A DNA stretch of 39,071 nt from Stramenopiles sp. TOSAG23-6. Taxonomy: Eukaryota. The notes under the pieces were generated by a model. It was given only the letters and a program-made list of their open reading frames with translations. It searched no databases and had not been told where the DNA came from. The stretch lies in the NCBI GenBank assembly GCA_900128565.1, contig LT635938.1, forward strand, positions 1 through 39,071. The letters run 5' to 3'. Made by a program: the position numbers and the translations under genes. The stretch's first letter is position 1. Each line of letters opens with the position of its first letter. Positions 1 to 39,071 of the stretch are shown one piece after another.

Positions 1-52
1 TTCGTACGAAAAATAAATTCGATTTTTTTGTAAAAAAAAAAATAAAACATAC

Positions 53-1550: not shown

Positions 1551-1614
1551 ATGGATTATGAAAAAATATTTCAATAAAAAATTCGTTAGGTACAAAATTT
1601 CGTATAAAAAATAC

Positions 1615-3513: not shown

Positions 3514-3729
3514 TTAATTTTAATCTACTACTAAGTCTTGATAAAATTTTTGTAGCATTCTGAATATTTTTTGATAATTAAATCATTTGAAAATCACGAA
3601 TTCTGGAACAGAATGACCGTTTCACTTCTTCGAAAAATGAAGTCTAAAATACAGTATCTATCTTGATTTTTGTTGCCTGTGGCTTGTTTTCCATTGCATA
3701 TCGAAATTGAATAAACATCGTAGGTTACA

Positions 3730-6700
3730 ATGGTGGTACCACCAATATTAGTAGACGATATCATTCCCCATCAGTTATTGCCAGAATGGGACGTCTCAAA
3801 GATACCCAACGAAGAAGCAAACGAAGAAGCTTCTCCTTTTGAAGATCCCCAGGGTTTGCCTGAGCTTCCAGCGAATCTTGAGTGTCAAATTTCAGAGTGG
3901 GTTAGACCGAAGGAATTGGCTGCACTAAAGCGCAGTAAGGAAGAATCTAATTCAGCAGGCGATGCAAACACATCCGAGGCAGTGGATGGAAGTCAAAATG
4001 CCGATACATCTGATAATACTACAGAAACTGTAGGAAAAGATAATGAAACTTTGGAGGAAAAAAAGGATGAAACAAAAGATACAGAAGATGAAGATGTAGT
4101 AGCACCAATTGAAGACAAAATTACTTACGCTGTTGCTAAACCAATATATGTTGCAAATACGATAGTAAAAATGTTACCGCGTAAGTTAGTGGCAGCAAGC
4201 AGTGACGCTGCAAAACTTTTAGCTTCACAATTGGAGTTAGTAGGTAATCATTCAAAACTTGTCAAAAACGGGTCTTTTTTATGGGAATTAATTCATCCTC
4301 AATTAGACGAAAACGCCTTGCCAAAACTAAGTAACACTGGAAGATACTTTGTGCGTTTGTTTGTAAGTGGTGCGTGGCGATGTGTCGAAATTGACGATCG
4401 CGTTCCTGTAGACGCCTTGGGGAACTGCCTATTCCCAGTATCAATGGATGCTGGTGAGATTTGGCCACTTATTCTTGCTAAAGCTCTCTATAAAGTGGCA
4501 GCTTCACAACGTGCTACTACTATTGTGAATGATGCTACAAGTCCAACTGTGTTGCGAAGACTCACTGGATGGGTATTCGAGCCATATACGTTAGGTCCTT
4601 TACAAGCATCAATCCCGGTGCAACTGAAAGCGACAGGATATCCTGATATTGACAAAATTGATTCGGATGCGTCTGAAAGTACCGGGCAGAACGACAATGA
4701 AGACTCTACGAATGAAAATAAAACTAGAGTTCCAAGATTACTCTGCCTACTATGTACTGATAGCACCAATGTCAATGGTGTAGAAGTTGGTTGCATTTAT
4801 GGCGTGTCAATGGTAAAACCAAAATCAATAAAGATACAAGGAAGTATTAACTATGCGATGTGGAGACACGAAATTCGCCGAGCTTTTGATACTCTGTCTC
4901 CAGTTGATGGAAAGAAGGAGTCTGTACTTCAAACAGAGCTTGTTGACATGTTGCATGAAGATGATATGCAGCTTGCATTAAAAGCTGCGTGTCTTGCGAA
5001 ACCTGGGGCTTTGAATAATCTTGATATTAGCGCGCAATCAGAGGAAAACAATCAGGCATCGATATCATGGGATGAATTTATTCGCATGTTTGATAATCTT
5101 ATACTAATTGAAGAGTCTGATATTGACGTACCATTCGGTGATATTTTACAAGCTTTTTCACCTGTAACAAATCTTGTATTCTGTCACAATGCACCCAATA
5201 TTAATGTTTCTGAGAAAAAGGCGGAAGATGATGATACTACGGAAACAGAAATTGATACAAATACTAAAACTACAAATATTGTATCAACAAGTTTTCATTG
5301 GAATTGGAAAAGTCCCACAACTGATACTGTTTCTGCAGAAGGTGATGACAACCAAAGTACAATTATAGTAAAGTCAGGAGGTAAAAATAATGCACGTTTG
5401 GAAGATGGATATATACGTCAAGGTGATGGTGATGCGTCCATTGAAGCGGAAAGTTGCATCGAGGAAATGTACTCGCCTATGCTTTGGGTTGATGGAGGTA
5501 TCACAGGAAGTCGTGTGGTTATAAACTTTGAAACAGATGCAACTTTGAAATCGAACACAGATGACGAAAAACACACGGGGTACATTTTGCTTATGGAGGA
5601 AATAAAAGGAAGTCCTTGGAGGGAACAGACCAAAGAGCAAGATGGAATATTTGGGTCACAGAGGCCGTGCGTGCCTCCAAAGACTTACCAAGTGATGTGT
5701 ACACGTGGTGACATTGCTGCTATGTCTTTCAATGTGTCTCCTGGCGAACATTTTTATCGTATGTCTGTTGACTGCTCTTGGGGTTGGAATGTGACATATT
5801 TTTCAGATGCCCCTATTTTATTAGGTCCGGTGACAAAAGTATTAAAAGATGTATCAGGAATGAACGGGACACAATTTAAAAGTCAATATTCACTAGTAGA
5901 AAATGAGGATTTTGTCGAAGAAAGTATTGTTGATGGTTCTAATAATAGTTGGCGCATTCTTGGAGCCCAAGTATTTCGTGTTCCAGAGCAAAGTGGTACT
6001 TCTGTCGGTGCTACATTGCATATGTCGGATCATATATGGCAACAATACGTGCGATTATCAATCATTGATAGAGATACTGGTACAAAGACATCCATGGGAT
6101 CTTTGGAGATGTCTATTCGAAATCTCCCTGCAAATTCGGAAGGGTATTGCCTTGTAGCAACGTATGAAAACTCTGTGAAAGATTTGCCTGGGAGTAAATG
6201 GAGAATGAGTATATTAAGTAGCGACCCATTATTGGATTGTGTCCCAGTTAATTTTGATAAACTGAAGACTGTTCTTGGAGTATACCAACCAAATAAGTAC
6301 AAGCGATTCTTTCGATTACGAATAACATCGCCAACTGGTGATGATGAAGAAGAAACATCTTTCAATCAGCACCTTGCACTGCGACTTTCGGTATCTGACC
6401 CATCAATTTATGTTCAATTGAATGTTCTTATGGTACTGGAAGAAAACCAAAGTGACCAAGATGATATTTTACCCGAACATCCAGTATGTAAATATGTTCG
6501 TAGTGATGGTGGTGTATCTGACGATTTCGTTGTTGTATCTAAACGTGGCAAGGGTTCAGCAGAATTACTGTATGTACCTGGTTTTGGTCCGAAAGGTAAA
6601 GAAGTTTTAATACAAGCTAGTTTCGATGCAGAAAGGTTTTTAGTTCCATCGAAGTGGAGTTCAGAATCTCCCTATTGGGAAAAAGGTGGACAAGATGTCG

Positions 6701-7338
6701 ATGGTGGTGGTGAAGACTCAGAATCAAGTCCTATTTCGAGCATTGATGAGCTCAGTTGGAAACTTACTATGAATAGTAAGATTGCAGTTACCGCTACACC
6801 ATGTAGGAAGCGTGAAGATTTATTCAATAATATTCGTGATCTCTGGGAGAAAAATTCTCCAGGTCGCGCAGAGAATGCAAAGAAATATTTTGATGAAAGA
6901 AATTCAAATAGCAATACTGAAACAAATACCGAAATAAATACTGAAGGAAGTACTGAAGGAAATGAAGATGCTTCTCCAAGTTCAAACATGCGACCAAATA
7001 TTGAACTGAAATATATTGCATCAAATTCTGCCCCTGATGAAGTTTCCGTCATCACCGTAGGCGAATGGAATGACGTAAAAGCATCAAGAAAAAAGCAACT
7101 TGAAGGGATGAAAGAGTTTTGGACGCAATGGGATGAACAAAGAGTCACAAACAAGCAAGAGCGTTTTAGAATACTTCAAAGTATTATTGGTGGAACAGAT
7201 GAGGATGAGACTGCAAGTGGCATATTAGGCGACATGAATAGATCTCAAAAGTCATACAATGCGTTTTTGTTAGATAGATTCAATACAATCACTAAATTAT
7301 CAGAATCGCCAGAAATAGTTCCTACAGAATCTTCATAA
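3730..7338 (+). CDS. Androglobin-like / calpain-like domain protein, 1202 aa, intronless
   Basis: Calpain-type segment GRYFVRLFVSGAWRCVEIDDRVP...EIWPLILAKALYK with no obvious catalytic Cys motif. YQPNKYKRFFR and WEKNSPGRA resemble the androglobin C-terminal region (recalled similarity). Confidence 0.7.
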   Translation: MVVPPILVDDIIPHQLLPEWDVSKIPNEEANEEASPFEDPQGLPELPANLECQISEWVRPKELAALKRSKEESNSAGDANTSEAVDGSQNADTSDNTTETVGKDNETLEEKKDETKDTEDEDVVAPIEDKITYAVAKPIYVANTIVKMLPRKLVAASSDAAKLLASQLELVGNHSKLVKNGSFLWELIHPQLDENALPKLSNTGRYFVRLFVSGAWRCVEIDDRVPVDALGNCLFPVSMDAGEIWPLILAKALYKVAASQRATTIVNDATSPTVLRRLTGWVFEPYTLGPLQASIPVQLKATGYPDIDKIDSDASESTGQNDNEDSTNENKTRVPRLLCLLCTDSTNVNGVEVGCIYGVSMVKPKSIKIQGSINYAMWRHEIRRAFDTLSPVDGKKESVLQTELVDMLHEDDMQLALKAACLAKPGALNNLDISAQSEENNQASISWDEFIRMFDNLILIEESDIDVPFGDILQAFSPVTNLVFCHNAPNINVSEKKAEDDDTTETEIDTNTKTTNIVSTSFHWNWKSPTTDTVSAEGDDNQSTIIVKSGGKNNARLEDGYIRQGDGDASIEAESCIEEMYSPMLWVDGGITGSRVVINFETDATLKSNTDDEKHTGYILLMEEIKGSPWREQTKEQDGIFGSQRPCVPPKTYQVMCTRGDIAAMSFNVSPGEHFYRMSVDCSWGWNVTYFSDAPILLGPVTKVLKDVSGMNGTQFKSQYSLVENEDFVEESIVDGSNNSWRILGAQVFRVPEQSGTSVGATLHMSDHIWQQYVRLSIIDRDTGTKTSMGSLEMSIRNLPANSEGYCLVATYENSVKDLPGSKWRMSILSSDPLLDCVPVNFDKLKTVLGVYQPNKYKRFFRLRITSPTGDDEEETSFNQHLALRLSVSDPSIYVQLNVLMVLEENQSDQDDILPEHPVCKYVRSDGGVSDDFVVVSKRGKGSAELLYVPGFGPKGKEVLIQASFDAERFLVPSKWSSESPYWEKGGQDVDGGGEDSESSPISSIDELSWKLTMNSKIAVTATPCRKREDLFNNIRDLWEKNSPGRAENAKKYFDERNSNSNTETNTEINTEGSTEGNEDASPSSNMRPNIELKYIASNSAPDEVSVITVGEWNDVKASRKKQLEGMKEFWTQWDEQRVTNKQERFRILQSIIGGTDEDETASGILGDMNRSQKSYNAFLLDRFNTITKLSESPEIVPTESS

Positions 7339-7430
7339 TATAATCTATCAATAAAAAGAATAATCCAAAAAATCAAAATATATGTTTTGTTTTATATTTA
7401 TTACAGTAGCAATACTATATAATCATTCTA

Positions 7431-8951
7431 TTAAGCCTGGGTGTAGTGCTGAAGTCTGTACAATAAAACCTTGCCTTTGTCATTTCCTATAGAAAGAAAG
7501 CCACTATGTGGGCTAAATGAAGTAGAACTAACGTACCCTAAAGGTGTGTTTGAAGTAGGCCAATTTTGGTAAGTTGTGAAACTTGGACAATGAACAATTT
7601 TAAATTGATCTTTAATTCGTTGAGACCGAATTGAAAGCAACTGTGAATCATGGTTAAACGTTAAACCATCAATGGCTGTGGTTAAATTCATAATAGCTTT
7701 GGTTGGTACAGGTGTAGCTTCTTTAGATGCCTTTTCTGCATCATATATGTTAACTACACCTGCTTCTGATCCAATTGCGTAATATTTACCATTTGGAGAA
7801 ACTGCAATTGCACTGCCTGTCATTCCACCTTCATCAGCGTGCCTGTGAATACATCTTCTGTCATTCAGACTCCATCTGTACACATCTCCATCAGTACCAA
7901 CAGTGAGTAACTCAGAACAATCAGGCGTAAAAGCAACAGCACGAACAGCCCCGTTCATTTTGAGGTTGGCAATCCATTGTTTTGTTTTTCCTGAAACTAG
8001 TATCACATATCCGTCATTACCCAAAAAAGCAATCCAACGACCATCTGACGAAGCCACAACCTTTTCAAGAGATTTCTCTTTACGACCAGCAATACGCGGA
8101 ATTTTAAGAACAGAACCTGATGCTATATCAACTGTGTAAAAGAATGGTCGACGGCCAGTTGCAATTATTTGTTCTGATCCCACTGCTGAAGAACCACAAC
8201 CTGAAAATGTTGCAGTCCTGATGGGCATGTCTGGAAATACAACACCTTGAATTTTTCTATTAAACTTTCCATCTATATCAAATAGTCTCAATTTTTTATC
8301 CAATCCAGCAGTAAGCATCAACGAGCGTCTCGTGTGAAATTCTACAGATTGCACAACAGCATCAGAAATTTCTTCAGCATTTGCGTCTTTTACTCGCAAT
8401 ACCGAGAGTTGTTCCTTTCTAATTGCAGCAGTTGAAGACCTCAGCATTGAGGCAGATGTTTTAAACAAATCTACAGCCAGACCATTCGTCATGTCATCAG
8501 CAATGGCAGAAGCAAACTTGAGACTTGGGGGCACTTCAGGTATGGCGGCCCACGACGTCGCAGGGTTCATTTTACAAAATTGCGAACGAAGACGACGCGC
8601 GTATTCAGCACCTGATACAACTGTTTCTTCTTCTGTCTTTCGAAGTTTCCGAAGCCGGTTTGTTGCACTAATATCAAAACTCTCTCTATCATCATCTGAA
8701 TCATTCCATGCAGGTTTTAAACACAGCTTTCTCTTACCGCCTGATTTTGATGAATTTCGAAAGTCGTTGTTTATTGTTTCTGAAGTACCACCTGTAAAAA
8801 TTGCATCACCTTCATTTCCAGACTCAGAGTCAGACATACTGTCACTCTCCTCCCCAAATTTCAATGCTGGACCACCAAATAGACTAGATGCAAGCTCTTT
8901 TTCTGAATCATCTGCATGCATTATCGCTGGAGTTGGTTTAGATTCTCCCAT
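7431..8951 (-). CDS. UTP18: U3 snoRNA-associated protein 18 (WD40)
   Basis: N-terminal KPAWNDSDD and RLRKLRK motifs, WD40 repeats, and C-terminal YQNWPT..TPLG..FSPHSGFLSIGNDKGKVLLYRLQHY. Confidence 0.92.
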   Translation of the reverse strand: MGESKPTPAIMHADDSEKELASSLFGGPALKFGEESDSMSDSESGNEGDAIFTGGTSETINNDFRNSSKSGGKRKLCLKPAWNDSDDDRESFDISATNRLRKLRKTEEETVVSGAEYARRLRSQFCKMNPATSWAAIPEVPPSLKFASAIADDMTNGLAVDLFKTSASMLRSSTAAIRKEQLSVLRVKDANAEEISDAVVQSVEFHTRRSLMLTAGLDKKLRLFDIDGKFNRKIQGVVFPDMPIRTATFSGCGSSAVGSEQIIATGRRPFFYTVDIASGSVLKIPRIAGRKEKSLEKVVASSDGRWIAFLGNDGYVILVSGKTKQWIANLKMNGAVRAVAFTPDCSELLTVGTDGDVYRWSLNDRRCIHRHADEGGMTGSAIAVSPNGKYYAIGSEAGVVNIYDAEKASKEATPVPTKAIMNLTTAIDGLTFNHDSQLLSIRSQRIKDQFKIVHCPSFTTYQNWPTSNTPLGYVSSTSFSPHSGFLSIGNDKGKVLLYRLQHYTQA

Positions 8952-9170
8952 TCTGTGTTTATAGGTCAGAGAAACTTGTACTTACACTAATCCTAGTTTT
9001 TCACTCGCTGACTATTTATTTCCGATTAATTGCACGAACCTGCTTTTCGACCAGAAATGTAACTGTTGTGTCGGTTGAAAGTAATTTGAGTTCATTTATA
9101 TGCATCATGCAAAACCCAAAAGGTAATACAAACAAATCATTTGGTTCATTTTTTATTTCAAAATGAGAAA

Positions 9171-9893
9171 ATGAATAGCCTTATCAAACATAAACTGCAC
9201 AAAAATATGCAACAAATAGATGAGAGTTCAAATTTTGTTATGGAGGGGTTGAGTGAACTTCGTTTTCTCAAAGGAAAACTTCCAGTTCCAAGTCCATCAG
9301 AAAAACTTCCAAAAACAAAATTTCCAGTAAAACAGAATATGGATATTTCGTACCCAGACTTATGCCCTGATATAGCTTACCAAAATGCTTCCACGGATCG
9401 TTTCTTAGAACTTCCAAAGCCACGTACGCAAGTAATAAAACCATTCAGAAGTCAAGTTTATCTCACGAAGGAGGAGAAAATTTTAATAGTGCAACAAAGA
9501 GCTGGAAAAATCAAGAAAGACACGAAACTCATGGAAGATATACCATCACGACACATACAAAGAAATGTTAAGTTTGGTTCTACTCAAACTAATCAATACT
9601 TTCGCAATTCTCGTGATGTTACTTATCAAGTGGATGATTTTGATCTACATGATTCTAAATTTCATAGAACCATCGATGAGGGTATTACAAATGTCGTTAA
9701 TTCAAAAGTCGCTAGTTGGCGAGCGGCACAATACTCAGCTCTAGCAGCGTTGCATGCAGAGGTAGTTACAGGGAAAATGTTACTACGTTTAAATGGAATG
9801 AAAAGTCAGAATTTTATACGGCAAGTTACTAAAATGCGATTAGATAGAAACAAATGTCAGTTTTTGTGGAATAATTTGATAAATCATAAATGA
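9171..9893 (+). CDS. Hypothetical protein (about 240 aa from the first ATG)
   Basis: Long ORF filling the gap between UTP18 and the 7TM gene; no recognised motif. Confidence 0.55.
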   Translation: MNSLIKHKLHKNMQQIDESSNFVMEGLSELRFLKGKLPVPSPSEKLPKTKFPVKQNMDISYPDLCPDIAYQNASTDRFLELPKPRTQVIKPFRSQVYLTKEEKILIVQQRAGKIKKDTKLMEDIPSRHIQRNVKFGSTQTNQYFRNSRDVTYQVDDFDLHDSKFHRTIDEGITNVVNSKVASWRAAQYSALAALHAEVVTGKMLLRLNGMKSQNFIRQVTKMRLDRNKCQFLWNNLINHK

Positions 9894-9972
9894 AAAACTA
9901 TAGTTATTTTTATTACATTATACCAAATTGGTACAAAAGCAAAATTAAATTGCATTACATTGTTTGCAATAG

Positions 9973-11256
9973 TTAAGACCTTGTGTTTTTAATAGGAAGC
10001 TTGCTTAAATTTATGCTCCTACAAACTTCCGCATTTAAATTTGAGTTGCAGTTTGTCGATGATATTTTCTGTTGCGTGGGTTGCATACTACGCCAGCATG
10101 AAAATAGTACATCATTTTTATACCCGTACATATATAACATAAGAAATCCTTGAAGGAAGAATATAAAATTATACGCAAGTGACAAAGCTGGAAAACTATT
10201 AATTATCAAGCCACAGCCACTGCTAGAGAGACTATCTACATTTCCGTCTATTAATCCAGACATTTTAGAACAACTTTTCAAAGATGCATTTAGATCATTT
10301 ATATTCGAATGGTCTCTAAAACTTTGAATGATACAATCTTGCCACAAACTCGATTTATTAACAAGGCCCAATGCAGGTTTCATATTTCCATTGAGGTAAT
10401 TAGCCAAGAGGCAAGATCGCCAAGAGACACTCGCTTTCCTTTTGACATGAAAGACCTTTAAAAGATTTAGGAGCATTATTGGGACTACCATCGAAGAGAA
10501 ACTAAGCATAAATGTCAAAAATCCTGTCAGCCCCAAGCAACATGTTTTCACACCTCTAAGTTTTTGTATTTTTCTTAATTCTATAAAACAAATACAGAGC
10601 AAAACGTTGCCAACAAACCAAATGAATGTAATAGGTCCGAAAAATAACACCCATCTCACAGGCCCAGTACCCCTAAAAAATAAACAGAAACTATTTGGTT
10701 CAGTGTGCCCAAATGCTTTATAAGTAAGAAGGATAGATACTATTATCAGAGGGAAAAGAAAACAAAAAACTAACGAACGAAAGGGGTCTAACCTTACTTC
10801 ACTTTTTAGCTTTACGAAAAATTGTAACACGGTTCGAAACCATAAACAGCACATGACTAGAGTGAAAAAAGCTATAGATGTTGCCTGTATAATACAAGGT
10901 GCAGTTTTGGAGTTAAAGCCGTGCCTTTTCATTTGAACGTGTGATACGTTGTCAAAACAAAATGATCCATGCTCCCCTCCAGTAATGTCACGAAGAGTTA
11001 TAGAAAAAACCAGAAAGAAGCTTACAATCAAAGTCACAATCGGTGACCTCAATTTCCTCAATTTGGGATCGATTAAGTATGCTAATATATGTAATCCTAG
11101 AAGAAGGCAAATGATAGTCCCAACGGTTGTTTCTAGAACGAGCATCCTATTGGAATCTCTCTTGGAAATAAACGGAGCTTCGCAAGGAATTTCACAGTCT
11201 CCAAGTGGGCTACGTTCTAGTGGTACAGGACATGATTTTAAAGAATCAAAATACAT
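9973..11256 (-). CDS. Frizzled/Smoothened-like seven-transmembrane receptor (5' end uncertain)
   Basis: CPVPL...CEIPCEAPF linker followed by about 7 hydrophobic segments and Cys-containing loops, the pattern of class F-like GPCRs. Confidence 0.6.
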   Translation of the reverse strand: MYFDSLKSCPVPLERSPLGDCEIPCEAPFISKRDSNRMLVLETTVGTIICLLLGLHILAYLIDPKLRKLRSPIVTLIVSFFLVFSITLRDITGGEHGSFCFDNVSHVQMKRHGFNSKTAPCIIQATSIAFFTLVMCCLWFRTVLQFFVKLKSEVRLDPFRSLVFCFLFPLIIVSILLTYKAFGHTEPNSFCLFFRGTGPVRWVLFFGPITFIWFVGNVLLCICFIELRKIQKLRGVKTCCLGLTGFLTFMLSFSSMVVPIMLLNLLKVFHVKRKASVSWRSCLLANYLNGNMKPALGLVNKSSLWQDCIIQSFRDHSNINDLNASLKSCSKMSGLIDGNVDSLSSSGCGLIINSFPALSLAYNFIFFLQGFLMLYMYGYKNDVLFSCWRSMQPTQQKISSTNCNSNLNAEVCRSINLSKLPIKNTRS

Positions 11257-11654
11257 TTCACGTAATATATGACCAAGGAATTAATATATGGTATGCCTAA
11301 TGGAATGTACACAGAAACGTATGGCGTAACCTTCCCTTTTGCTTCTATGTTACTGTGTAATTGAATTCGTGGTGGTGGGTAGCAAAGCGGTAGCAAAAGT
11401 TGATGGATGACCGTTCTTTAAAACTTTCCCTAAAACTTTCTTCGTGTTGTGTTACTTGAAAGTTTGAAACCTAAAAATAAATTTGAAATTGAGCTTTCGA
11501 GTCAATATTATTAGTCAAACGGTCAAAAAATCCAGGACATAGAGAGATAAGAAGACTCTCAAGAAGAAAAAATGAACTAAGTCTTGGACATTACACATTT
11601 TGAGTTCATCACGAAAAGTCTTGTTAGTGTTGTTACTTGGCTAATTTGAAGCTT

Positions 11655-14522
11655 ATGTGGTATCTAGAGAGCACTGCGAATGCTACGACTGTGTCACAAT
11701 TTTGGTTGGTAGCAGGTAGGCACACGGTGGGCCGAAAGGGAGCAATTGCGTTGGTTAACGACAAGTCTGTTAGTCGTCATCACGCGACGGTTATAGTAGC
11801 TGTTTCATTTGACTGTAAAGACGAACAATCAATTCCAAGTATTCAAATAGAAGATAAATCCAAATTTGGTACAAGTGTAAATGGAGAACGTCTCCAAAAA
11901 GGAGAAACTTACAATCTTTGTGACGGAAGCCTCATCGAGTTTGGCGTTTCGAAGTCTGTGTTTGTATTACGTTGGAAGCCGCTTTTATTATGTGTTTCTC
12001 GTGCAGACAAAGCATCTAAAAAGAGAGTTAAAGTTTTAGCAATGAAAATCGGTGCTCATATCACAAGCGTTTGGTGCAGTCGTTGTACTCATCTGGTTCT
12101 CTGTGGTACATTTGCGATAACGTTCAAAGTAATTTGGGCTCTTCTTCAAAGCAAACCGATTATTACACCTAGATGGCTCAGCGATGTCGCGGGAGGTCAA
12201 CCTACATCGATGAGTAATGGCACAGTACATAAATTACGCACGACTTTACCTCAAATACAATCTTATCTTCCTGAAGGTCAGGAGTCGTATACTTGTCAAC
12301 TATTACCAAATTCTCAGAGAAATCAAATGTTTCAAGGTTTTACTTTTATTTTCACTCATCCTTCAGACTATTCAGATATTGTCGAAGCTGGTCAGGCGCA
12401 AACTATTCGGTTGTTTTTATCTACTGTTGAATGCACAGATGATGATTTTCAAAAGTGGTCTAAAAATGATACATGCTTTGTGTACATTTAAAAAATTGAA
12501 TGTTTTACATAAATTATTTTTCGTACGAAAATTTGTGCCTAACAAAAACAATTAAATTAAAATATTTTTTTCACAATACATGGTTGAACCTATCCAAGGT
12601 CTAGTTCATAGATCCTCACAAATTTCATCCATAACACAGGCTAGTCAAGTATTTGGTGTATCTCATTCTAAAGGGCATTTAAATACATTTTGTTCAGATT
12701 TTATTCAGACTGAGAATTTTAATAGAGCTTCAGAAGCAGGAATTGGTGTATTTTCAGAAGGCGATTTCCCAAAGTGTATACTACAAATGATTACCCCAAT
12801 TAAAAAAAACGTAGAAAAAACTGTACACCAAGAGATTATATATGAAAATCCTGTAGGAAAAATGAATAATGAAAAATCCAAAAATGTATCTGTCATGAAT
12901 GCTTGTCGTGTAAATGTAGATAATAAAATAATTCAACAAGTAGAAGATAAAATAATTCAACAAGTAGATAATAAAATAATTCAACAAGTAGAAGAAATCA
13001 ATAATTGCGAAGCGAGTACATCCGTAGACAAACCTAACACACATAATACTACAGTGAAAACTTCATCGAAGAAAGATATTTTGTCGTCTTCGACAAAACA
13101 AATAACAAGAAGTGCAAGGAAGAAACGATGTGGGAGGAATGGACGCCGAGTCGGTCATATTGGTAAGAGAAAACCTATTGAAGTATTTACAAATGATAAT
13201 AAAAGCGATGTAAACGATGTGCAAAATAGTGCAGAGGACAAAGAGAGTGATAAAATTGTGAAGGAGTGTGTTGAAAGTACCAAAGTTGATTGTGGCAATG
13301 ATGAAGTTGTACCATCACTAGTACAAGATAATGAAGTTATACCATCACTAGTACAAAATAATGAAGTTATACCATCACTAGTTCAAGATAATGAAGTTAT
13401 ACCACCACTAGTTCAAGATAATGTAGTTATACCACCACTAGTTCAAGATAATGAAGTTGTACCATCACTAATACAAGATAATGAAGTTATACCACAACTA
13501 GTAATTGATAGCAATAAAAATAAATCTGCATGTCGTTGGCAAACAAAAAAGCGTCATCGAAATGAAATAGGAAATAAAAGTGAAAATTCTTCAAATGAAA
13601 ATGATTCTGATAATGACGGTTTCATTTCAAAAAAGAGGAAAACTCAATCATCATCATCACAAAAAAAAGGAGGCGACATTCTTGTCGGCGACTTGGAAGA
13701 AATAGATACTCTAAACCCGAGTAATGTTGATAATAGTAGTAATGCGTTTATACCTCCAAATGAGCGAAGACATGTATGTTTTATTTTTTTTTCAATTTCG
13801 AATTTTTTTTCATACGAAATTTTGTACCTAACGATTTGTTTTTGAAATATTTTTCCAAAATACATTTGAACGAAAATGGTCCATGTTGGATCTCGGCAAT
13901 ACACAAAGAAAATACATCGAATAGTTTGAACAGTTTTGATGATGAAAAGAATGTAAAATATGCAAAAGTAATTCCACGACAAATTCATACAAATAATCAA
14001 ATACAATCTAATGATGAAAATGAGGGAAGTGCGATTAAATTTTCTCAGGATCATCGGAAAAATAGTGAGGACTCTGGTACTAATTTTAAAAAATTTCGGA
14101 AAAATTTTTACACAGTTTCTAAACAACATCACAGAGTTGCATTTTGTAGTCCAAGAGAATATGTTATACCTGGAAATGGTTCGGAAGCGTTGCAACGTCG
14201 TCGCAACCAATATGCACACGAGGAGATGCTTGAGCGTGAAGCTGAGGAGCTTTGGGTTTTTGATCAGAGGCAAGTGAAGAAAGCTCCATTATCAAAAGCA
14301 CAACAAGAAAAAGCAGAAAATGCAAAGTCTAAAGCAAAATCTAAAGCAAACGAAGCGAAACAAAACGCAAATGCAATTGATTGGCAACAATTGCGCCGTG
14401 ATGGTTTAGTTCAAAAACAAAAAGTTTCTGTTCTAAAAGCCTTCTTACGCAGCAGAAAGTTAAAAGTTGGAGGTCGGAAGGGTGAATTAGTCGAGAGAGT
14501 TTTAATTGAACTTGGGGGATAA
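11655..14522 (+). CDS. NBS1: Nibrin/NBS1 (FHA-BRCT, Mre11-binding motif) with C-terminal SAP-like domain; exons 11655-12481, 12582-13773, 13866-14522
   Basis: MWYL start, FHA (VGRK...DKSVSRHHA...DKSKFGTSVNG), BRCT (CTHLV...TFKVIWALL...PIITPRWL) and NFKKFRK. The three ORF pieces join in frame on removing two repeat inserts. Confidence 0.88.
12482..12581 (+). mobile_element. Introner-like intron, GT...AT, 100 nt (mirror 26456-26555)
   Basis: tgt|GTACAT...CGTACGAAAATTTGTGCCTAAC...AATATTTTTTTCACAATACAT|g; removal gives F-V-V-E in frame. Confidence 0.75.
12916..12996 (+). repeat. 24-bp coding tandem repeat, about 3 copies (VDNKIIQQ)
   Basis: gtagataataaaataattcaacaa units. Confidence 0.9.
13301..13503 (+). 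repeat. 30-bp coding minisatellite, about 7 copies (DNEVIPSLVQ)
   Basis: atgaagttataccatcactagtacaagata units with point variants. Confidence 0.93.
13774..13865 (+). mobile_element. Introner-like intron, GT...AT, 92 nt (mirror 25172-25263)
   Basis: acat|GTATGT...CATACGAAATTTTGTACCTAAC...AATATTTTTCCAAAATACAT|ttg; removal gives R-R-H-L-N-E. ACAT is duplicated at the borders. Confidence 0.82.
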
Positions 14523-14600
14523 GCTATTTCAAAATTTTCGCACATTTTTTTTTGTTTAGTTTATTTAGTTGCTACTATAAACTTTAATTTGACTAAGTCT

Positions 14601-16688
14601 TCATTGTTGAACTGCTTTAATATACACATCAGAGCACATCTCATTAGTAAAGGAAATCACTTTAAATGCTGGTTGAACTTCTGCTATCTTTAATAACCAT
14701 TCTTTACAAGCCCCACATGGATTTAAAGGGTTTGATGCAACTCTAATCGGATAGCCGTTATCTGCTATAGTGTCAGGAGCTTCTATTCCTTGTTCAAATA
14801 AAAATTTATTATAAGAATCACCACGTCGCCTAGATCTTCTACTCGTGGAAGAAGCATCATTTAAACAAGAATTGTGGTTACTATTTACTCCTATTTTTTT
14901 TTGGTGTATACAAGGGCTTTGACTACGACATGTAAAATTTAATGTTCTTTCGATTTTATTATCATCCTCATTTATTGCGTTTTTCCTTGAACTTGATATA
15001 TGATTTTGAGGTTTTGCCCTGTTTCGCTTCTTCTTGATTGGACTAGAAACTACAGGAATTTTTGGTAGTGATAACACTGCTATCATTTTTAAGTCTCTAC
15101 GCCTAAGGGTTAAATCAGAAGCAAGAGCAGTACCTATACAATTTCGTTCAGCACATAAACTACCAGTAGGCATTGATACCTCTAAATTAATTCCACAGTG
15201 AAATATTGGCTCTTTTTGGTTTTCTTTTTTTATCATCAAAACAGCTAACACGGGACTTCTCGTTTTTCGTAACCAGAAAGAAGATAACTCTGTTTCATAT
15301 TTTGTGTCTTTTGTATTTATTTTATTGACTTCTGATTTTGAAATATTTGATTCATTATCATTTGCCGAATTGTCATCATATACACGAGCACACATCATCT
15401 CTGGACCAAATTCAGTATCTGTAAAATTAGATTCCTCAACTTTTTCTTTTTTATTGTCTTTACCTTGGTGATCAAAACTTTTAAGAAATGACCTTTTGAA
15501 CTTTATGACTTCTTTTACAAGTCTTTGTACATCTCTTGATGTGTCACAGACACGTTGTGCAGGCTGCATTTCTAATTGCTCAAATGTCTCCCAACACAAC
15601 AAAGAGGGGCGTAGACGTTGAGACTGCCAGAAGGATTTTGGTTGCCAAAAATGAATATAATCTGGGCGAAAACGTCGTAAACCGGCAATGAGTGCGGAAG
15701 TGCGAGCAGGAGTTCCGTCAGTGACAGTAAGACAAAGATTAAAAAAATCTTTCCAGTCATCTAGAATTTCTGATGCGAGATACTCGCAATGTGCTTCAAT
15801 GTGTGGCTTCAAAACTGTACTAATAAATGCGCTATTTTGTCTGTATCTGAAGACTCCAGAACCACTGTTTAATGTAAATACTTCAATTTCAGGAAAAAAT
15901 GTCTGTACAAATACTTGTAGAATCATGGCAGAGCCTTCCGTTGAGTTTCCTTTTTCTTGATGATCAGGATTCCGTGGAGCACCAGATCCAGAAATTAAGT
16001 ACAGAATTTGTTTACTATTTGTAGGGTGAGCCATGGCTTTTCTCCACTTCGGAATAACCAGAGCAAGGAGTGGGAAAAATATATATATAAAATTAGGTGG
16101 AACATTTGCATCTATCAAACGCCCATCATTACGTACATGAAATTCGGACCAACCACCCAACTGTAAAGGTTTTTGTCCAAGTTTTGATCGAGACTCTTGC
16201 AAATTAAACCCAGCGATGACTCGTTGAGGTATTTCATTTTTGCTATTTAAACTATCTTCTGTGTTGTGCCAACCTTTTGTTTCTATTTCTCCAGGTTGTT
16301 TTTGTAATTGTGTGCGGGAGTTAGTGTCAGCTCCAAATGATAATGGGAATAATACTGGTTCCAAGCATCCTGCTACTTCTGCTTCTTTTGTAAAATAAAG
16401 TAGAGCTTCCATATGAGACATGAGACAGCTGAACTTTGATTTCATAAATATTTGCTGAGCAAAATCTGGATTTGTCTTACCGTCACCACGCTGTTCAATA
16501 TGGCGAGCATATTGAAAATTCTGACTCTTTGGACGAAAAGTATTCTGATGGGCACATAGTACAACATCACTATGAGATACATTATGAACTAAAATCTCTA
16601 AAGGTTTTGGACACGTCGAACTTGAGTTACTTTGTATATTTTTATTGTTCAATTCGTAGGCCTCGTCATTTCTCAACGAAATATCCAT
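14601..16688 (-). CDS. Cytidine-deaminase-domain protein with a large uncharacterised N-terminal region
   Basis: Zn-binding motifs GINLE...LCAERNCIG and NPCGACKEWL, separated by a low-complexity insert. First ATG at 16688. Confidence 0.8.
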   Translation of the reverse strand: MDISLRNDEAYELNNKNIQSNSSSTCPKPLEILVHNVSHSDVVLCAHQNTFRPKSQNFQYARHIEQRGDGKTNPDFAQQIFMKSKFSCLMSHMEALLYFTKEAEVAGCLEPVLFPLSFGADTNSRTQLQKQPGEIETKGWHNTEDSLNSKNEIPQRVIAGFNLQESRSKLGQKPLQLGGWSEFHVRNDGRLIDANVPPNFIYIFFPLLALVIPKWRKAMAHPTNSKQILYLISGSGAPRNPDHQEKGNSTEGSAMILQVFVQTFFPEIEVFTLNSGSGVFRYRQNSAFISTVLKPHIEAHCEYLASEILDDWKDFFNLCLTVTDGTPARTSALIAGLRRFRPDYIHFWQPKSFWQSQRLRPSLLCWETFEQLEMQPAQRVCDTSRDVQRLVKEVIKFKRSFLKSFDHQGKDNKKEKVEESNFTDTEFGPEMMCARVYDDNSANDNESNISKSEVNKINTKDTKYETELSSFWLRKTRSPVLAVLMIKKENQKEPIFHCGINLEVSMPTGSLCAERNCIGTALASDLTLRRRDLKMIAVLSLPKIPVVSSPIKKKRNRAKPQNHISSSRKNAINEDDNKIERTLNFTCRSQSPCIHQKKIGVNSNHNSCLNDASSTSRRSRRRGDSYNKFLFEQGIEAPDTIADNGYPIRVASNPLNPCGACKEWLLKIAEVQPAFKVISFTNEMCSDVYIKAVQQ

Positions 16689-16991: not shown

Positions 16992-18076
16992 TCACAATTT
17001 TATTTTTTCATGAATTTTATAAATATTCTTCTCTATTTTGTTCATAGCTATTTCTGTAGCATTATACACTTCTTCTTGACTAAGCGATGCATCAATAGGA
17101 TACACTTTAGAATCGTCAATTTCTCTGAAAAGTTCGACTATTGGAAAAGTTTCTTTATAAAATGTGTTGAACCCTATGAAGTGAAAAAATATTTCAAACA
17201 TTTGAAATTCGTTAGGTACGAAATTTTGTATGAAAAAAAAAAAATGAAGTGGATAAACATACTTTTTCTAATTGATAAAATATTATCATCTTCTCTACCA
17301 CTGACTTTCCCTCTTTCTAATAGTCGCCTCTCTAATATCTTTTGATCGCATGTATAGTACAACATACCACTATATTTGATTGTAGGGTTAGGTGCAGTTT
17401 TTCCGACAGAATTTATAAAATTTTCATTTCTCAAAAGCTTCAGTTGATCAATCCAACCAACGAAATTATCCAAATTTCTTGGGAATCCATCCACCAGAAA
17501 GTTTTGTTTATCACTTTGTGCAATTTTTCGTTGAATCAATCGAACAGTCAATTCTGCAGGAACAATTGAGCCATCTTTAATACACTTGGAAATTAAAATG
17601 CCGTCTTGACTCTTGGGATTACATTGTTCTTCTCGTAAACAATCTCCGGCTGAAATGTGAGTAAACTTGGAATATTTTTTTTCTATCAATTTCGATTGAG
17701 TACCTTTTCCAGAACCAGGACCACCAAGTATGAAGACTACCGACTTAATGGGGTGTAAAGACTCTGTTTTAGTTAAGCTCTCCACATCAAAAAACCCTGA
17801 CATACTCAAGTTTTCTTTCATATGAGGTGAAAGCCAGGTAGTAAATTTTTGTGTTGAGCACTCTACATCAAAGAAACCTGACATACTCAAAGTTTCTTGA
17901 ATATGTGGTGAAAGCCAGGTAGTAAAACTTCGTACTTTAGCTGGATCGACATGAGCTTGGAATCTACAGAAACTTCCCGATAAAGATAAAACAGAAGAAC
18001 GTTGTGCGAGATAACTCGAATGAGGTTTCGGCCAGCGACTTAAGAAACGATTGAAGAAACGATTAAACGGCTGCAT
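16992..18076 (-). CDS. UMP-CMP kinase (adenylate kinase family) with N-terminal extension; exons 18076-17263, 17173-16992
   Basis: VFILGGPGSGKGTQS, HISAGDCLR, FLVDGFPRN and, after splicing, GREDDNILSIRK-RFNTF. Confidence 0.9.
17174..17262 (-). mobile_element. Introner-family intron with canonical GT-AG ends, 89 nt
   Basis: aaa|GTATGT...CATACAAAATTTCGTACCTAAC...AATATTTTTTCACTTCATAG|gg; restores the conserved K-R-F-N-T-F. Confidence 0.88.
17781..17926 (-). repeat. 81-bp-period coding duplication (FTTWLSPHxxExLSMSGFFDVE twice)
   Basis: Copies at 17781-17845 and 17862-17926. Confidence 0.9.
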
Positions 18077-24436: not shown

Positions 24437-24514
24437 AGACTTAGTCAAATTAAAGTTTATAGTAGCAACTAAATAAACTAAACAAAAAAAAATGTGCGAA
24501 AATTTTGAAATAGC

Positions 24515-29064: not shown

Positions 29065-29143
29065 CTATTGCAAACAATGTAATGCAATTTAATTTTGCTT
29101 TTGTACCAATTTGGTATAATGTAATAAAAATAACTATAGTTTT

Positions 29144-29866: not shown

Positions 29867-30085
29867 TTTCTCATTTTGAAATAAAAAATGAACCAAATGA
29901 TTTGTTTGTATTACCTTTTGGGTTTTGCATGATGCATATAAATGAACTCAAATTACTTTCAACCGACACAACAGTTACATTTCTGGTCGAAAAGCAGGTT
30001 CGTGCAATTAATCGGAAATAAATAGTCAGCGAGTGAAAAACTAGGATTAGTGTAAGTACAAGTTTCTCTGACCTATAAACACAGA

Positions 30086-31606: not shown

Positions 31607-31698
31607 TAGAATGATTATATAGTATTGCTACTGTAATAAATATAAAACAAAACATATATTTTGATTTTTTGGATTATTCTTTTTATTGATAGATTATA

Positions 31699-35307: not shown

Positions 35308-35523
35308 TGTAACCTACGATGTTTATTCAATTTCGATATGCAATGGAAAACAAGCCACAGGCAACAAAAATCAAGATAGATACTGTATTTTAGACTTCAT
35401 TTTTCGAAGAAGTGAAACGGTCATTCTGTTCCAGAATTCGTGATTTTCAAATGATTTAATTATCAAAAAATATTCAGAATGCTACAAAAATTTTATCAAG
35501 ACTTAGTAGTAGATTAAAATTAA

Positions 35524-37422
35524 ATGGTAACCATGCACAAGCATGACAATGAACACAAGAAGAGTACGTATGTACTGTCAAGAAAGATATTTCTTCGAGC
35601 AATTGGTTTTGTATATTTGATTGCATTTTCTTCATATTTTTGGCAGTACCCGGGGCTGTACTCTCAACAAAATGGTTTAATTCCTATACAAAATATACCA
35701 GTGACTTCAGATCCTATCACCTTCTTTGTTGAGAATACGTTAAATTTTCAGCCCACCACACTTGCAATCTTTCACAATCATTTGGCTTTCGATATTGATA
35801 CATTTCATGAGCTATTGTCTCTTCTTGGTGTACTTGTTTCCTTTTTTGTGTTATTAGGAACCTATCCAGCTGTATTTTTGTATATTCAGTGGATCACCTA
35901 TTTCTCACTTTATTCAACGGGTAGGACGTTCATGAGTTTTCAGTGGGATATTTTACTTTTAGAGGTCGGCGCCGCATCAATTCTATGGGCACCATGGATA
36001 AAAATTTACAATGGTAAAAGTCCTTCACATGTAGTTCGTTGGTTGCTTCGCCTAATTTTTTTTAAGTTAATGCTTCTCTCGGGAGTAGTAAAACTCCAGT
36101 CAAGGTGTAAAACATGGAAATCCTTGACTGCTCTTGATTATCATTATGCCACACAGTGTATACCAACACCTTTTGCATGGTTTGCTCACCAATTGCCTCC
36201 GTTTTATCAGCAACTTTCTGTTGGAATTTGCCTACTTATAGAAATTCCACTGTCTATATTAATTATTTGTCCTGTACATTTTCATCACGAATTTCAGATT
36301 TAAATTTAATTTTTTCATACGAAATTTTGTACCTAACGATTTGTTTTTGAAATATTTTTTCACAATACTTATTCGTTTCTTAAGACTTACAGCTGCAGTT
36401 ACACAATCAGCCTTGCAGGTACTCATAATTATGACTGGGAATTATACATTTTTTAATCTTCTAACGATTTGCTTATGTATTCCATTGGTCGACGATTTTT
36501 GTCTATCCTATATGTTTTTATGATGAATATCAATGTTTTTTTTTTTATAGAAAATTCCGTACCTAACGATTTTTTTTGTGTGACATATTTTTTCACCAAC
36601 ATGGCTGTTTTCATGTATTTGTACTTGTTTCCTACGAAAAAAACAAAATAGAGCATACAAACATTCTTCTGGAGTGGATAGCAAATATAATTCTCGAACT
36701 ATGAGCAGTGCATTTTTTGTAGCGTTTATTTCATTTTGTATTGGAATTTCTGCGTATGTACGTTTTATTTTTTTTCAAATTTGAATTTTTTTTCGTACGA
36801 AATTTTGTACCTAACGATTTTTTTTGGAAATATTTTTCCAAAATACATGTATTTGAATTGAAGATTTGGAACGAAAATGATACAAAAAATGATCCAAAAA
36901 TTATAACTTTATCTGAAAATTTTAGTCTTTCTTTTGTGAAGTTTTTAGTACATTTGTTTCTAAATGATCCTTCATTGGGTAAAATGTATGTTTTATTTTT
37001 TTCAATTTCGAATTTTATAGGAAATTTTGTACCTAACAAAATTTTTTAGATTTTTTTTGAAATATTTTACCAAAATAAATGAGCATGTCGTGGTCGCTTC
37101 CATTAAAAACATTAAATGCAATATGTAGTCAAATACTCCCATATATATTAGGTACATTTTGTATAGGAATTTCACTACAAATGATATATACCTTTTTATT
37201 AAATTTTCGAAAAATATGTACGTTTTCATCATTCATTTCAAAACGTTTTTTTTCATACGAAATTTTGTACCTAATGATTTTTTATCAAAAAAAAAATATT
37301 TTTCACCAATACATGCATCACAGAAAAAAAGGGTAAAAGAAGACAAATATGTTTTAATATTGTCGTAAACGTAATTAGTTGTATCAAGTCAACGACAGTA
37401 TCAATCATTGCTTTATGTCTAT
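35524..37422 (+). CDS. Lipase maturation factor, 3'-truncated (exons 35524-36273, 36371-36509, 36603-36757, 36849-36985, 37081-37217, 37315-37422)
   Basis: Six exons join into one stop-free frame when five repeat inserts are removed. Confidence 0.88.
36274..36370 (+). mobile_element. Introner-like intron, GT...TT, 97 nt
   Basis: cct|GTACAT...GTACCTAAC...CACAATACTT|att; gives IICP-IRFLRL, colinear with LMF2-type FFAPIRRLRL as recalled. Confidence 0.8.
36510..36602 (+). mobile_element. Introner-like intron, AT...AT, 93 nt
   Basis: cct|ATATGT...GTACCTAAC...CACCAACAT|gg; gives DDFCLS-W-LFS and removes an in-frame TGA. Confidence 0.72.
36758..36848 (+). mobile_element. Introner-like intron, GT...AT, 91 nt
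   Basis: tat|GTACGT...CCAAAATACAT|gta; gives SAY-VFELK. Confidence 0.8.
36986..37080 (+). mobile_element. Introner-like intron, GT...AT, 95 nt
   Basis: aaat|GTATGT...CCAAAATAAAT|g; gives GK-M-SMSW. AAAT is duplicated at the borders. Confidence 0.78.
37218..37314 (+). mobile_element. Introner-like intron, GT...AT, 97 nt
   Basis: tat|GTACGT...GTACCTAAT...CACCAATACAT|gc; gives RKI-C-ITEK. Using the first downstream AG would create TAA. Confidence 0.8.
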
Positions 37423-37521
37423 GTATTTTTTATTTTTTTTTTACAAAAAAATCGAATTTTTTTTTCGTACGAAATTTTGTACCTAACGAATTTTTTATTG
37501 AAATATTTTTTCATAATCCAT
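37423..37521 (+). mobile_element. Introner-like element forming the LMF / 5-phosphatase chimeric junction (99 nt here, 64 nt in the mirror at 1551-1614)
   Basis: tat|GTATTT...GTACCTAAC...CATAATCCAT|ga; flanking exons belong to different protein families and are out of phase. Confidence 0.75.
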
Positions 37522-39019
37522 GAACCCTGCAGCAAGAATTATTCAAATAGCGGATATTATGAATAGACTTGGAAATCGACTTGGTGATAAACATTTTGAT
37601 TTGAATCAACAATTTCATAACTTAGTTTGGATGGGTGATTTAAATTACAGATTGGAAAGTGTATGTCTTACATCATGATTTTTTTCTTCATTGTTTTTTT
37701 TCATAGCAAATTTTGTACCTAACGAACTTTTTTTCCAAAAAAAAAAAAATAATATTTTTTCAAAATACATGTAACTACTGAAAATGTTTTAAATTGTATC
37801 GGTGGTGGTGAGACAAAATTACGTCATTTACATGATGATTATGACACTTTTCGATTAGATCAGAAAATGGGTAATGCATGGGTTGGGTTTAAAGAACCTA
37901 AAAAAGCAGATAACTTCTTTCCTACATATGTACGTTTTTATAATTCATTTCCAATGTTTTTTTTTTTCGTATGAAATTTTGTACCTAACAAAAAAAAATC
38001 AGAAAAAAAAAAAATTCACAATACATAAGCTATATGAAGGTAGAAATGAGAATCTCTCCAATTGGTGCAATACACCAAGACAGTCTGTACGAAAGAGTGC
38101 GCATATAAATGTAAAAAATGATGAAATTTATGATGTTCCGTTATCTCCAATTAAACTTGAAAAAGATGATGAAATCGAAATGATTCGAGTAGATTGGCCA
38201 CGAAAAGTCTATCGTACGTTGTATAAAGAACCCATATATAAAGGTAGAAGTGTCAAAGAACGTTGTCCTGGCTGGTGTGATCGAATTATTTACTCTCAAC
38301 TTTCTTTTTCAGATGCAAAAAAGGATATGTATGATCCAGGTATCCTTTGTCCAATGCCACAACAACAACAACAACATGATAAACAACAACATGATAAACA
38401 ACATGATAAACAACAACAACAACAACATGATAAACAAGTAGGATTAGTGTCAGTAGTAGCCAATGACAAGACAAATATGAAATATGTATATGAAGCAGTG
38501 CATAAAGTTCAAGGTTGTGATATAAGTGATCATGCTCCTGTATTTGGTGTGTATTCACTAACATCTAGAATGTACATACCAGTACAAGTGTTTAATACAA
38601 CTGTAGTAAATGATGAAAATTGTAATGATTCGGAATTATTGTCAAGCCTAAAGAATAAATCTTTAGATTCTATTACAGAGACAAAAGTTTTAGATACATG
38701 TTACAATGAATGCACTACTTCTCCTGAAATACCTCCTAAAATTCCTAAAATACCTCAAGGAGTTGAGCTTCCATTTGGTCGACATGTATGTTTTATTATT
38801 TTTTTTTTACAAAAAAGTCGAATTTTTTTTTTTTTTGGTAAAAAAATTTTGTACCTAACAAATTTTTTTTTTTTTTGGTAAAAAAATTTTGAAATATTTT
38901 TCCAAAATACATGGTTATTTGACAAGAATTAGAATAGAAAATATTTCTATAGGATCTCAAATTCAAAATTCAAAAAAAATAGTAGATAATGTAGTAGAAA
39001 ATTCATCAGAAAATATCAT
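37522..39019 (+). CDS. Inositol polyphosphate 5-phosphatase, partial (exons 37522-37660, 37771-37929, 38027-38785, 38913-39019)
   Basis: WMGDLNYR, PTYK, PGWCDRI and SDHAPV fall in one frame after insert removal. Confidence 0.85.
37661..37770 (+). mobile_element. Introner-like intron, GT...AT, 110 nt
   Basis: agt|GTATGT...GTACCTAAC...CAAAATACAT|gta; gives NYRLES-VTTE. Confidence 0.8.
37930..38026 (+). mobile_element. Introner-like intron, GT...AT, 97 nt
   Basis: tat|GTACGT...CACAATACAT|aag; restores the conserved PTY-K motif. Confidence 0.82.
38786..38912 (+). mobile_element. Introner-like intron, GT...AT, 127 nt, with internal 31-nt direct duplication
   Basis: acat|GTATGT...CCAAAATACAT|ggt; gives FGRH-GYLTR. 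The next several AGs are out of phase. Confidence 0.8.
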
Positions 39020-39071
39020 GTATGTTTTATTTTTTTTTTTACAAAAAAATCGAATTTATTTTTCGTACGAA
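39020..39071 (+). mobile_element. Introner-like element truncated by the window end
   Basis: cat|GTATGTTTTATTTT...TCGAATTT...TTCGTACGAA. Confidence 0.78.

Follow-up and report, generated by a model that had tools for sequence, protein, structure and literature searches.

A family of introner-like insertions, mostly ending in AT, in protein-coding genes of a stramenopile contig

Results

Genes and insertions at the locus

The window analyzed here is a stretch of 39,071 nt of contig LT635938.1 from Stramenopiles sp. TOSAG23-6 (assembly GCA_900128565.1), in which several protein-coding genes are interrupted by copies of one short repeated element (Table 1). A lipase maturation factor (LMF) gene (Pfam LMF1, E 1.9e-37; 3631 homologues at E<=0.001) is interrupted by five copies, an inositol-polyphosphate-5-phosphatase-like gene (Exo_endo_phos2) by four or five, and a gene for a protein with FHA and BRCT domains by two, and the housekeeping gene for UMP-CMP kinase carries one. 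These are at least four unrelated host genes in the window. A fifth is P0153, a PP-loop and DUF924 gene model of the same-named assembly, which ends inside another copy, translated as ..KYFSKIH and corresponding to a ..CAT end. The original prediction, made from the sequence alone, described 11 complete inserts, nine in the interval 36274-39071 and two in a gene that it called the core repair gene NBS1. All 11 were found at these places, and it had missed a twelfth distinct copy (17262-17174, minus strand, AG end) and an inverted duplication. The gene name held only in part: the FHA and BRCT domains are Nbs1-like, whereas the NIBRIN_BRCT_II match is weak (15.4 bits, cut-off 27.2) and the protein has a C-terminal SAP domain, so that identity with NBS1 is not proven and the gene is called Nbs1-like here. 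The terminal SAP domain (13866-14519, plus strand, E 7e-8) is unusual for Nbs1, as are repeated ..VIPSLVQDNE.. units in the middle exon.

The genome is compact. Most genes of the window consist of one long frame each (1204, 1500, 516, and 435 codons, free of inserts), and the intergenic spacers are roughly 80 nt. Three database proteins (P0001, P0002, and P0153) match the locus or another copy-bearing gene and are identical over long stretches. One source labels them 'GSMAST32 ... assembled CDS', which suggests that the host is a MAST-3-type stramenopile.

Two inverted arms, 1-16115 and 22922-39071, flank a unique centre of 6.8 kb. They are 100% complementary except for a 35-nt indel inside the 37423 copy, the left-arm mirror of which is shorter by 35 nt. 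As a result of this duplication, the interval copies recur on the minus strand at 1-2800, and those of the Nbs1-like gene have mirror copies at ~25200 and ~26500; the counts below refer to the unique part of the window. The inverted duplication may be a real palindrome, or it may have arisen as a chimera during amplification. Each inner junction is spanned by an open reading frame; the upstream parts of the two frames differ (197 codons at the left junction, 995 at the right) and lead into the same ..IDANVPPNFIY.. continuation, and contig record 5 of a seawater DNA run (X3) runs 30 nt over the left inner junction.

Table 1. Element copies and related features of the window (AG distances are counted downstream of the element end).
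Feature	Position	Strand	Description
LMF copy	36274..36370	+	GT..TT, 97 nt, phase 0; best validated non-AG junction
LMF copy	36510..36602	+	ATATGT..CAT, 93 nt, phase 1; aberrant 5' end; nhmmer E 1.6e-12; open frame once removed
LMF copy	36758..36848	+	GT..AT, 91 nt, phase 0; nhmmer E 2.6e-16; in-phase AG at +15
LMF copy	36986..37080	+	GT..AAAT, 95 nt, phase 2; AAAT repeats the upstream exon end; in-phase AG at +3
LMF C-terminus copy	37218..37314	+	GT..AT, 97 nt; ambiguous 3' boundary; profile match
Copy between or overlapping the LMF end and the 5-phosphatase start	37423..37521	+	GTATTT..CCAT, 99 nt
5-phosphatase copy	37661..37770	+	GT..AT, 110 nt, phase 0; in-phase AG at +42
5-phosphatase copy	37930..38026	+	GT..AT, 97 nt, phase 0; joins ..FFPTY to KLYEG..; in-phase AG at +3
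5-phosphatase copy	38786..38912	+	GT..AT, 127 nt, phase 0; ACAT repeats the upstream exon; next four AGs out of phase
Tenth interval copy, 5' half only	39020..39071	+	Cut by the window end; truncated, hence weak in nhmmer
Nbs1-like gene, divergent copy	12482..12581	+	GT..AT, 100 nt, phase 2; first two AGs out of phase
Nbs1-like gene copy	13774..13865	+	GT..AT, 92 nt, phase 0; direct repeat ACAT; first three AGs out of phase
UMP-CMP kinase copy	17174..17262	-	GT..AG, 89 nt, phase 1; canonical family member
LMF exon 1 (N-terminal domain)	35524..36273	+	Pfam PF06762, E 1.9e-37
Mirror of 22922-39071, same copies on the other strand	1..16115	-	Inverted duplication

Sequence features of the element family

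There were 12 complete copies and one cut by the window end. A complete element is 89-127 nt long and consists of a GTAYGT start, a T-tract, the core TTTTGTACCTAAC, and a 3' block, AATATTTTTYCAMAATACAT. An nhmmer profile built from 11 copies recovered each of them at E values of 1e-10 to 4e-17. The 13-mer core, with at most two mismatches, occurred 24 times in the window against 1.9 expected, and the largest number in 100 shuffles was 7. Pairwise likeness of the copies was 56-92% (median 67%). Conservation in the family alignment was highest at the 5' GTAYGT and at the branch-like CCTAA core; columns of the GTA start and of the TTTTGTACCTAAC block were invariant, and the AAATTTTGTACCTAAC block was invariant or nearly so. 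Low overall likeness together with invariant GTA and TTTTGTACCTAAC columns fits constraint on splice signals in old copies. A weak core-like fragment at 18307-18349, upstream of the kinase gene, matched on both strands (E 0.012 and 0.29) and is either a remnant or a chance match. In metagenome contigs, a 16-mer scan returned at least 118 loci, where a profile search gave only two weak partial matches of 18-21 bits. These loci were rejected as chance matches, with no real copy found by profile, and a 19-mer scan of viral contigs for the element gave 0 matches.

In U2-type introns, a branch motif CTRAY followed by a pyrimidine tract lies roughly 18-40 nt before the 3' end. A 5' GT was present in 11 of the 12 complete copies, and 10 fit GTAYRT, the U1/U6-type 5' consensus. 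The two that depart from it start with ATATGT and GTATTT, so the shared GTAYRT-like start of the original prediction held in nine of its 11 copies. CCTAA occurs in all 12, with the putative branch A 34-54 nt before the 3' end and a T-rich tract after it. The 3' ends are AT in 10 copies, TT in one, and AG in one; the endings predicted for the first 11 (CAT, AAT, or CTT, never AG) were found nine times, once, and once, respectively. As far as the sequence can tell, the family has every feature of a U2-type intron except the 3' AG. An AG between the branch motif and the 3' end was present in only two of the 11 non-AG copies, which share a consensus, so that these events are not independent.

U12-type introns have the 5' motif RTATCCTT and a branch motif, TCCTTAAC, ~10-26 nt from the 3' end, without a pyrimidine tract. 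This type was rejected for the present family. CC at +5/+6 is missing from all 12 copies (no TATCC), the distance from branch to 3' end is 34-54 nt, and the element contains a T-tract; its core TACCTAAC resembles the U12 branch motif in part only.

Exon junctions

Excision at the homologous ends produced continuous LMF and 5-phosphatase frames and a 900-codon Nbs1-like frame, in agreement with the original prediction. At 36273/36371 the ends are fixed by homology. Residues 137-250 of LMF exon 1 correspond to Pfam LMF1 positions 1-116 and residues 2-43 of exon 2 to positions 118-159, which puts residue 1 of exon 2 at 117 and leaves no gap, so the LMF motif is indeed restored by the excision, and the tblastn alignment of homologue P0007 is continuous over the same point (230/231/232). 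With a hidden Markov model (HMM) of 40 homologues, the 36274 excision scored 404.9 bits, compared with 350-377 bits (maximum 376.9) for the eight possible GT/GC-AG alternatives, which places it at least 28 bits above every one of them. The comparison with homologues that had been proposed as a check thus favours this boundary. A slide by one letter gives TG..CT, which is still non-AG.

The kinase copy provides a second exact junction. Residues 158-159 of kinase exon 1 correspond to residues 149-150 of human UMP-CMP kinase (1TEV), the split codon to 151, and residue 2 of exon 2 to 153. Because of this gap-free continuity with 1TEV residues 149-153, the predicted GT..AG intron at 17262-17174 is exact. 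Its AG occupies the same two alignment columns as the AT of the other copies, so for at least one member the 3' splice point truly falls in the homologous column. Exact ends are thus established for two copies, the TT-ended 36274 copy and the AG-ended kinase copy.

Of the 11 non-AG copies, only four have the first AG past the branch motif in frame, as expected by chance; this AG is out of frame in the copies at 36274, 36510, 36986, 37423, 38786, 12482, and 13774. For four copies it had been claimed that the nearest downstream AG is out of phase or creates a stop. It is out of phase at 36274 (+14), 38786 (+14), and 13774 (+43), while at 37218 (+9) it is in phase and makes TAA. The last of these is no argument against AG use because the LMF protein could simply terminate at this stop; excision at the AT lets the 37218 frame continue for 41 codons, up to the next copy. 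Excision of the 36758 copy at its AT scored 5 bits above the first-AG alternative (36758-36863) with the homologue HMM. Little can be read from the frame of the 37423 copy, which is situated at the start codon of the 5-phosphatase model or ahead of it. Exon 2 of the 5-phosphatase gene corresponds to Pfam positions 145-182 and exon 4 to 234-286; exon 3 fits between them, its ends not fixed, and alone it had no match in PDB sequences at E<=10. The 37930 junction restores PTYK, which we take to be a conserved 5-phosphatase motif. The Nbs1-like junctions lie in unconserved sequence, and exon 2 of that gene had no Pfam match.

The true ends might lie two letters to the left, making the introns AT..AC in type with the same mRNA in most copies. 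AT precedes GT in seven of the 12 copies, for which the AT..AC (or ..AA, ..CC) and GT..AT products are identical, whereas at 36274, 37661, and 12482 the two readings yield different mRNAs. A first-A/last-C pair is known to be workable. U2-dependent AT-AC introns exist (PMC1557818). Against such a shift, the unshifted reading of 36274 keeps a proline common to 22 of the 23 homologue rows listed, the unshifted kinase reading gives K-R-F, continuous with 1TEV, and the U12-type 5' motif is absent from all 12 copies. Presumably, GTAYGT also matches the U1/U6 consensus only in the unshifted register, which counts against the shift. We consider shifted ends very unlikely.

Insertion pattern and possible traces of transposition

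All 13 copies in the window lie inside coding sequence and in the sense direction of the host gene (~1 in 8000 by chance), and a 14th copy, in another gene model of the same-named assembly, is likewise in sense. In the seawater DNA run X3, the element bins have a depth of ~100-2000x single copy, as summed over all contigs and not quantitative, which suggests on the order of a thousand copies.

The end of the insert repeats the end of the upstream exon over 0-4 nt (mean 2.0), and true pairs exceed permuted pairs (P=0.002). The 4-nt direct repeats are AAAT once and ACAT twice. The repeat resembles a short duplication of the target site, with the intron taking its 3' end from the second copy. The copies from 36274 to 37930 follow one another at 237 +/- 18 nt from start to start, with exons of 137-159 nt between them, and the larger exons of 759 and 1192 are near multiples of ~150 nt. 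The regular spacing and these exon sizes suggest nucleosome-phased insertion. Introners, which are transposon-derived introns, have been reported to insert in nucleosome linkers, and some of their families carry the 5' site and take the 3' site from the target duplication (PMC9860276).

With their occurrence in unrelated genes, uniform sense orientation, conserved 5' and branch blocks, high DNA depth, and nucleosome-scale spacing, the copies very probably form one introner family, and the original description of the inserts as introner-like is well supported. Structure-guided excision of the euglenid type was rejected, as there was no stable end pairing and no compensatory change. The ends ATGTAY and ATACAT are complementary in 79% of cells over 6 nt only, with no covariation. 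The consensus fold has -0.69 kcal/mol and four pairs, none of which joins the intron ends, and the 6-nt end pairing was not predicted. No snRNA or other Rfam family was found in the window.

Copies in independent DNA

Nearly all of the window was found in two small DNA runs of 2015, both from one organism. Coverage is 50-72% in three seawater metagenomes of 2024, and five seawater metatranscriptomes cover small shares. In X3, one of the 2024 metagenomes, contig record 3 (10379-12944) holds the 12482 copy whole, and contig record 1 extends 64 nt into the 36274 copy and thus contains the 5' exon-element junction. The insertions were therefore present in wild populations nine years apart. Within the LMF gene, X3 departs from the window at three positions, all of them synonymous and one located in a small exon flanked by two copies; every exon between copies has kept an open frame.

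These data bear on the explanation that the inserts are removed at the DNA level (programmed elimination) or arose as an artefact of single-cell amplification or assembly. The inverted duplication is of the amplification-chimera kind, one copy differs by 35 nt between the arms, and independent assemblies break at copies. However, the independent metagenome DNA contains the 12482 copy in full as well as the 36274 exon-element junction, none of the DNA joints listed for X3 crosses an insert, and RNA splice-like signals and a strand bias would be needless for DNA elimination. Elimination or artefact is a highly improbable source of the inserts.

Discussion

Proposed non-AG splicing and the evidence against it

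Use of a non-AG 3' splice site is the likeliest explanation of these insertions, with a probability that we put at about 0.65, because one non-AG junction is exact to the residue, the AT ends are homologous to a verified AG junction, and the statistics of the downstream AGs agree. The AG-independent 3' site of the original prediction is supported by the 36274 junction, the kinase column, and the chance-level phase of the downstream AGs, all of it indirect, with no RNA junction among those listed. We infer that the AT-ended copies are spliced at the homologous point, and by the spliceosome.

In the mechanism that we propose, each copy would bring into a compact AT-rich marine protist genome a strong U2-type 5' site (GTAYGT), a branch-site-like CCTAAC, and a T-rich tract, and would end 34-54 nt past the branch A with a conserved AATATTTTTYCAMAATAC motif followed by two letters, mostly AT. 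The final 2-4 letters tend to match those that close the upstream exon, like a target-site duplication. The spliceosome would cut at the GT and directly after the duplicated stretch. Such a cut would remove the element together with one copy of the duplication and restore the frame that existed before insertion, and the 3' site need not be AG. An even chance is given to the broader proposition that nearly the whole intron complement of this genome is one mobile family with a non-AG 3' site, cut after the target-site duplication (mostly ..AT), with signals of the element itself (5' site, branch site, and conserved 3' motif) guiding the cut.

Several observations weigh against non-AG splicing. 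Frame keeping and motif restoration are automatic for any insertion into an intact frame and are by themselves no proof of splicing, and only one non-AG junction (36274) sits in sequence conserved enough to fix the ends. For LMF introns 2-4, the alternatives for 36510 included, the homologue HMM cannot discriminate between models. As the original prediction had already cautioned for 36758 (+15), 36986 (+3), and 37930 (+3), in-frame AGs follow some of the copies; they lie 3-42 nt downstream of 36758, 36986, 37218, 37661, and 37930, and homology is compatible with their use. At 37218, the AG at +9 would give a protein ending in ..NFRKI*, a plausible terminus. In addition, the window resembles a single-cell amplified assembly and is an inverted duplication. 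Two of the host genes are incomplete. The LMF gene has the N-terminal LMF1 domain only, and the conserved C-terminal half of the family occurs nowhere in the window. The 5-phosphatase lacks the N-terminal catalytic half and starts at ~145 of the 288 Pfam positions. These may be short forms, decaying genes, or the result of an assembly misjoin at a repeat copy. Finally, reads were compared for three metatranscriptome runs and the DNA run X3 on window positions 1-20000, which include the mirror of the interval. The joints listed there, RNA or DNA, were only cross-matches between element copies, with no exon-exon joint, and among the contigs listed there was no RNA contig bridging any insert. The transcript check for non-canonical junctions therefore returned no exon-exon joint among those listed, and the repeat swamped the comparison. 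Element-bearing contigs were plentiful in the three RNA runs, with depth relative to exons about as in DNA, although these depths are not quantitative. Such a depth fits retention of the inserts; it would be explained equally well if small unspliced fractions, a few per cent of the RNA, added up over many highly expressed genes.

The downstream AGs raise the possibility of introners spliced conventionally, from the 5' GT to the first suitable flanking AG or at another GT-AG pair, with small deletions in the proteins. The in-phase AGs, the natural-looking protein end at 37218, and the inability of the HMM to separate models for LMF introns 2-4 are all in its favour, as is the AG of the kinase member, and the public models P0001 and P0002 were built on GT-AG. 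On the other hand, all GT/GC-AG models for 36274 disrupt the LMF1 profile and score lower by 28 bits or more. In seven of the 11 copies, among them 38786 and the two Nbs1-like ones, the first AG is out of frame, and the public models based on GT-AG lose conserved residues and translate parts of the element. Conventional splicing is accordingly regarded as unlikely.

The RNA depth and the incomplete genes bear on a different explanation, in which the inserts are unspliced miniature transposons in broken genes, either pseudogenes or recent deleterious insertions, and the open frames reflect recency. Automatic frame restoration, the truncated appearance of LMF and 5-phosphatase, and the abundance of element sequence in RNA runs are what it would lead one to expect, and MAST-3 single-cell assemblies with 'advanced pseudogenization' of dynein genes and low gene counts have been described (PMC5778133). 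It has to contend with 13 of 13 copies in sense, with splice-like motifs conserved in copies only ~67% alike, and with exons that are all open and differ from X3 in LMF by synonymous changes alone (3 of 3). Moreover, a housekeeping kinase gene carries a copy whose removal gives a gap-free match to 1TEV, and about a thousand copies would have to reside in a genome with roughly 80-nt intergenic spacers. Unspliced transposons are an improbable explanation for the family as a whole.

Comparison with known introns and significance

The present family is similar in many respects to introners of Micromonas, Aureococcus, Symbiodinium, Chrysochromulina, and other organisms (PMC9860276). Those are likewise short, non-autonomous repeat introns in unrelated genes with a genic and sense bias. 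They have at least one splice site of their own, short stretches of inverted similarity at their termini, and a short direct repeat where they are inserted; their removal restores the length of the mRNA, their spacing fits inter-nucleosome insertion, and their hosts are aquatic (PMC9860276). The difference lies in the 3' end: the families described end in AG (rarely AC), whereas 11 of the 12 complete copies here have no AG. A 2025 introner survey dropped families with mainly unfamiliar splice sites unless they were supported by RNA (PMC12130899).

Amoebophrya introner elements are also repeated introns of a marine protist with non-canonical ends. An inverted repeat joins their ends, and a 3-5 nt direct repeat lies over the exon/intron borders, so that the borders slide (PMC7789003). 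They have no preferred terminal dinucleotides and carry inverted repeats of 8-20 nt, and their authors suspect a mechanism other than ordinary splicing (PMC7789003). In contrast, the present family has a canonical 5' GT, a branch motif, and a T-tract, and only the 3' dinucleotide deviates; the end complementarity is 6 nt, with no stable fold. In Fritillaria borealis, the major spliceosome handles introns with 3' AU/AC that are thought to be transposon-born, showing that AG-independent use of the 3' site can become the rule in a genome (PMC13326754). The 5' end of those introns is non-canonical as well, and the system has been linked to duplicated, diverged U2AF subunits (PMC13326754), while the 5' end in the present family is canonical. 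Animal GT-AT introns, both U2-type (DGCR2) and U12-type, have the same pair of dinucleotides and are spliced, as shown or inferred (PMC1557818). However, they are single conserved oddities among hundreds of thousands of introns, whereas here the GT-AT form would be the dominant class and a mobile family. In the main texts of the literature on introners or non-canonical introns with MAST or stramenopiles, and on GT-AT repeated introns, no description of this family was found; supplements on the stramenopile single-cell genomes may give intron statistics.

The 3' AG is among the most fixed signals of eukaryotic gene expression, and the genome-wide departures from it are few (Fritillaria, Amoebophrya, and euglenids). 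If non-AG splicing of the present family is true, a textbook 5' site and branch site combined with an AT end would isolate the question of the 3' site cleanly. One could then ask how the second catalytic step and U2AF-type recognition manage without AG, and whether target duplications of transposons dictate splice-site identity. The family would be a protist counterpart of the Fritillaria introns, but with a canonical 5' end. Introns missed in annotation would then account for part of the low gene counts and 'pseudogenes' of such genomes. Gene finders built on the GT-AG rule model these loci wrongly, with P0001, P0002, and P0153 reading into the inserts, and for this abundant ocean protist group both gene catalogues and functional inferences may be systematically damaged. 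The low gene counts and 'pseudogenized' dynein genes in MAST-3 (PMC5778133) might partly reflect unrecognised inserts.

Public gene models

The public models P0001 (37519-38881) and P0002 (35533-36523) force GT-AG introns on the locus. Together with P0153, they translate pieces of the element, such as ..VCFIIFFLQKSRIFFFFGKKILYLT.., and the GT-AG models skip conserved parts of exons. The start codon of P0001 is an ATG that straddles the 3' end of the 37423 copy. The model uses the in-phase AG at +42 of 37661, so that 14 residues are dropped, and it reads directly into the 38786 copy. Shorter relatives of P0001 that might be transcript-derived protein fragments were sought in protein databases, and none was found. 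With the largest 5-phosphatase exon as a protein-database query, only P0001 matched, and with the translated element only P0153, which bears the same assembly label. Inside the 5-phosphatase domain, a Gln/His-rich low-complexity run (QQQQQHDKQQHDK...) lies at 38350-38440 (plus strand), and the public model excises it as an intron.

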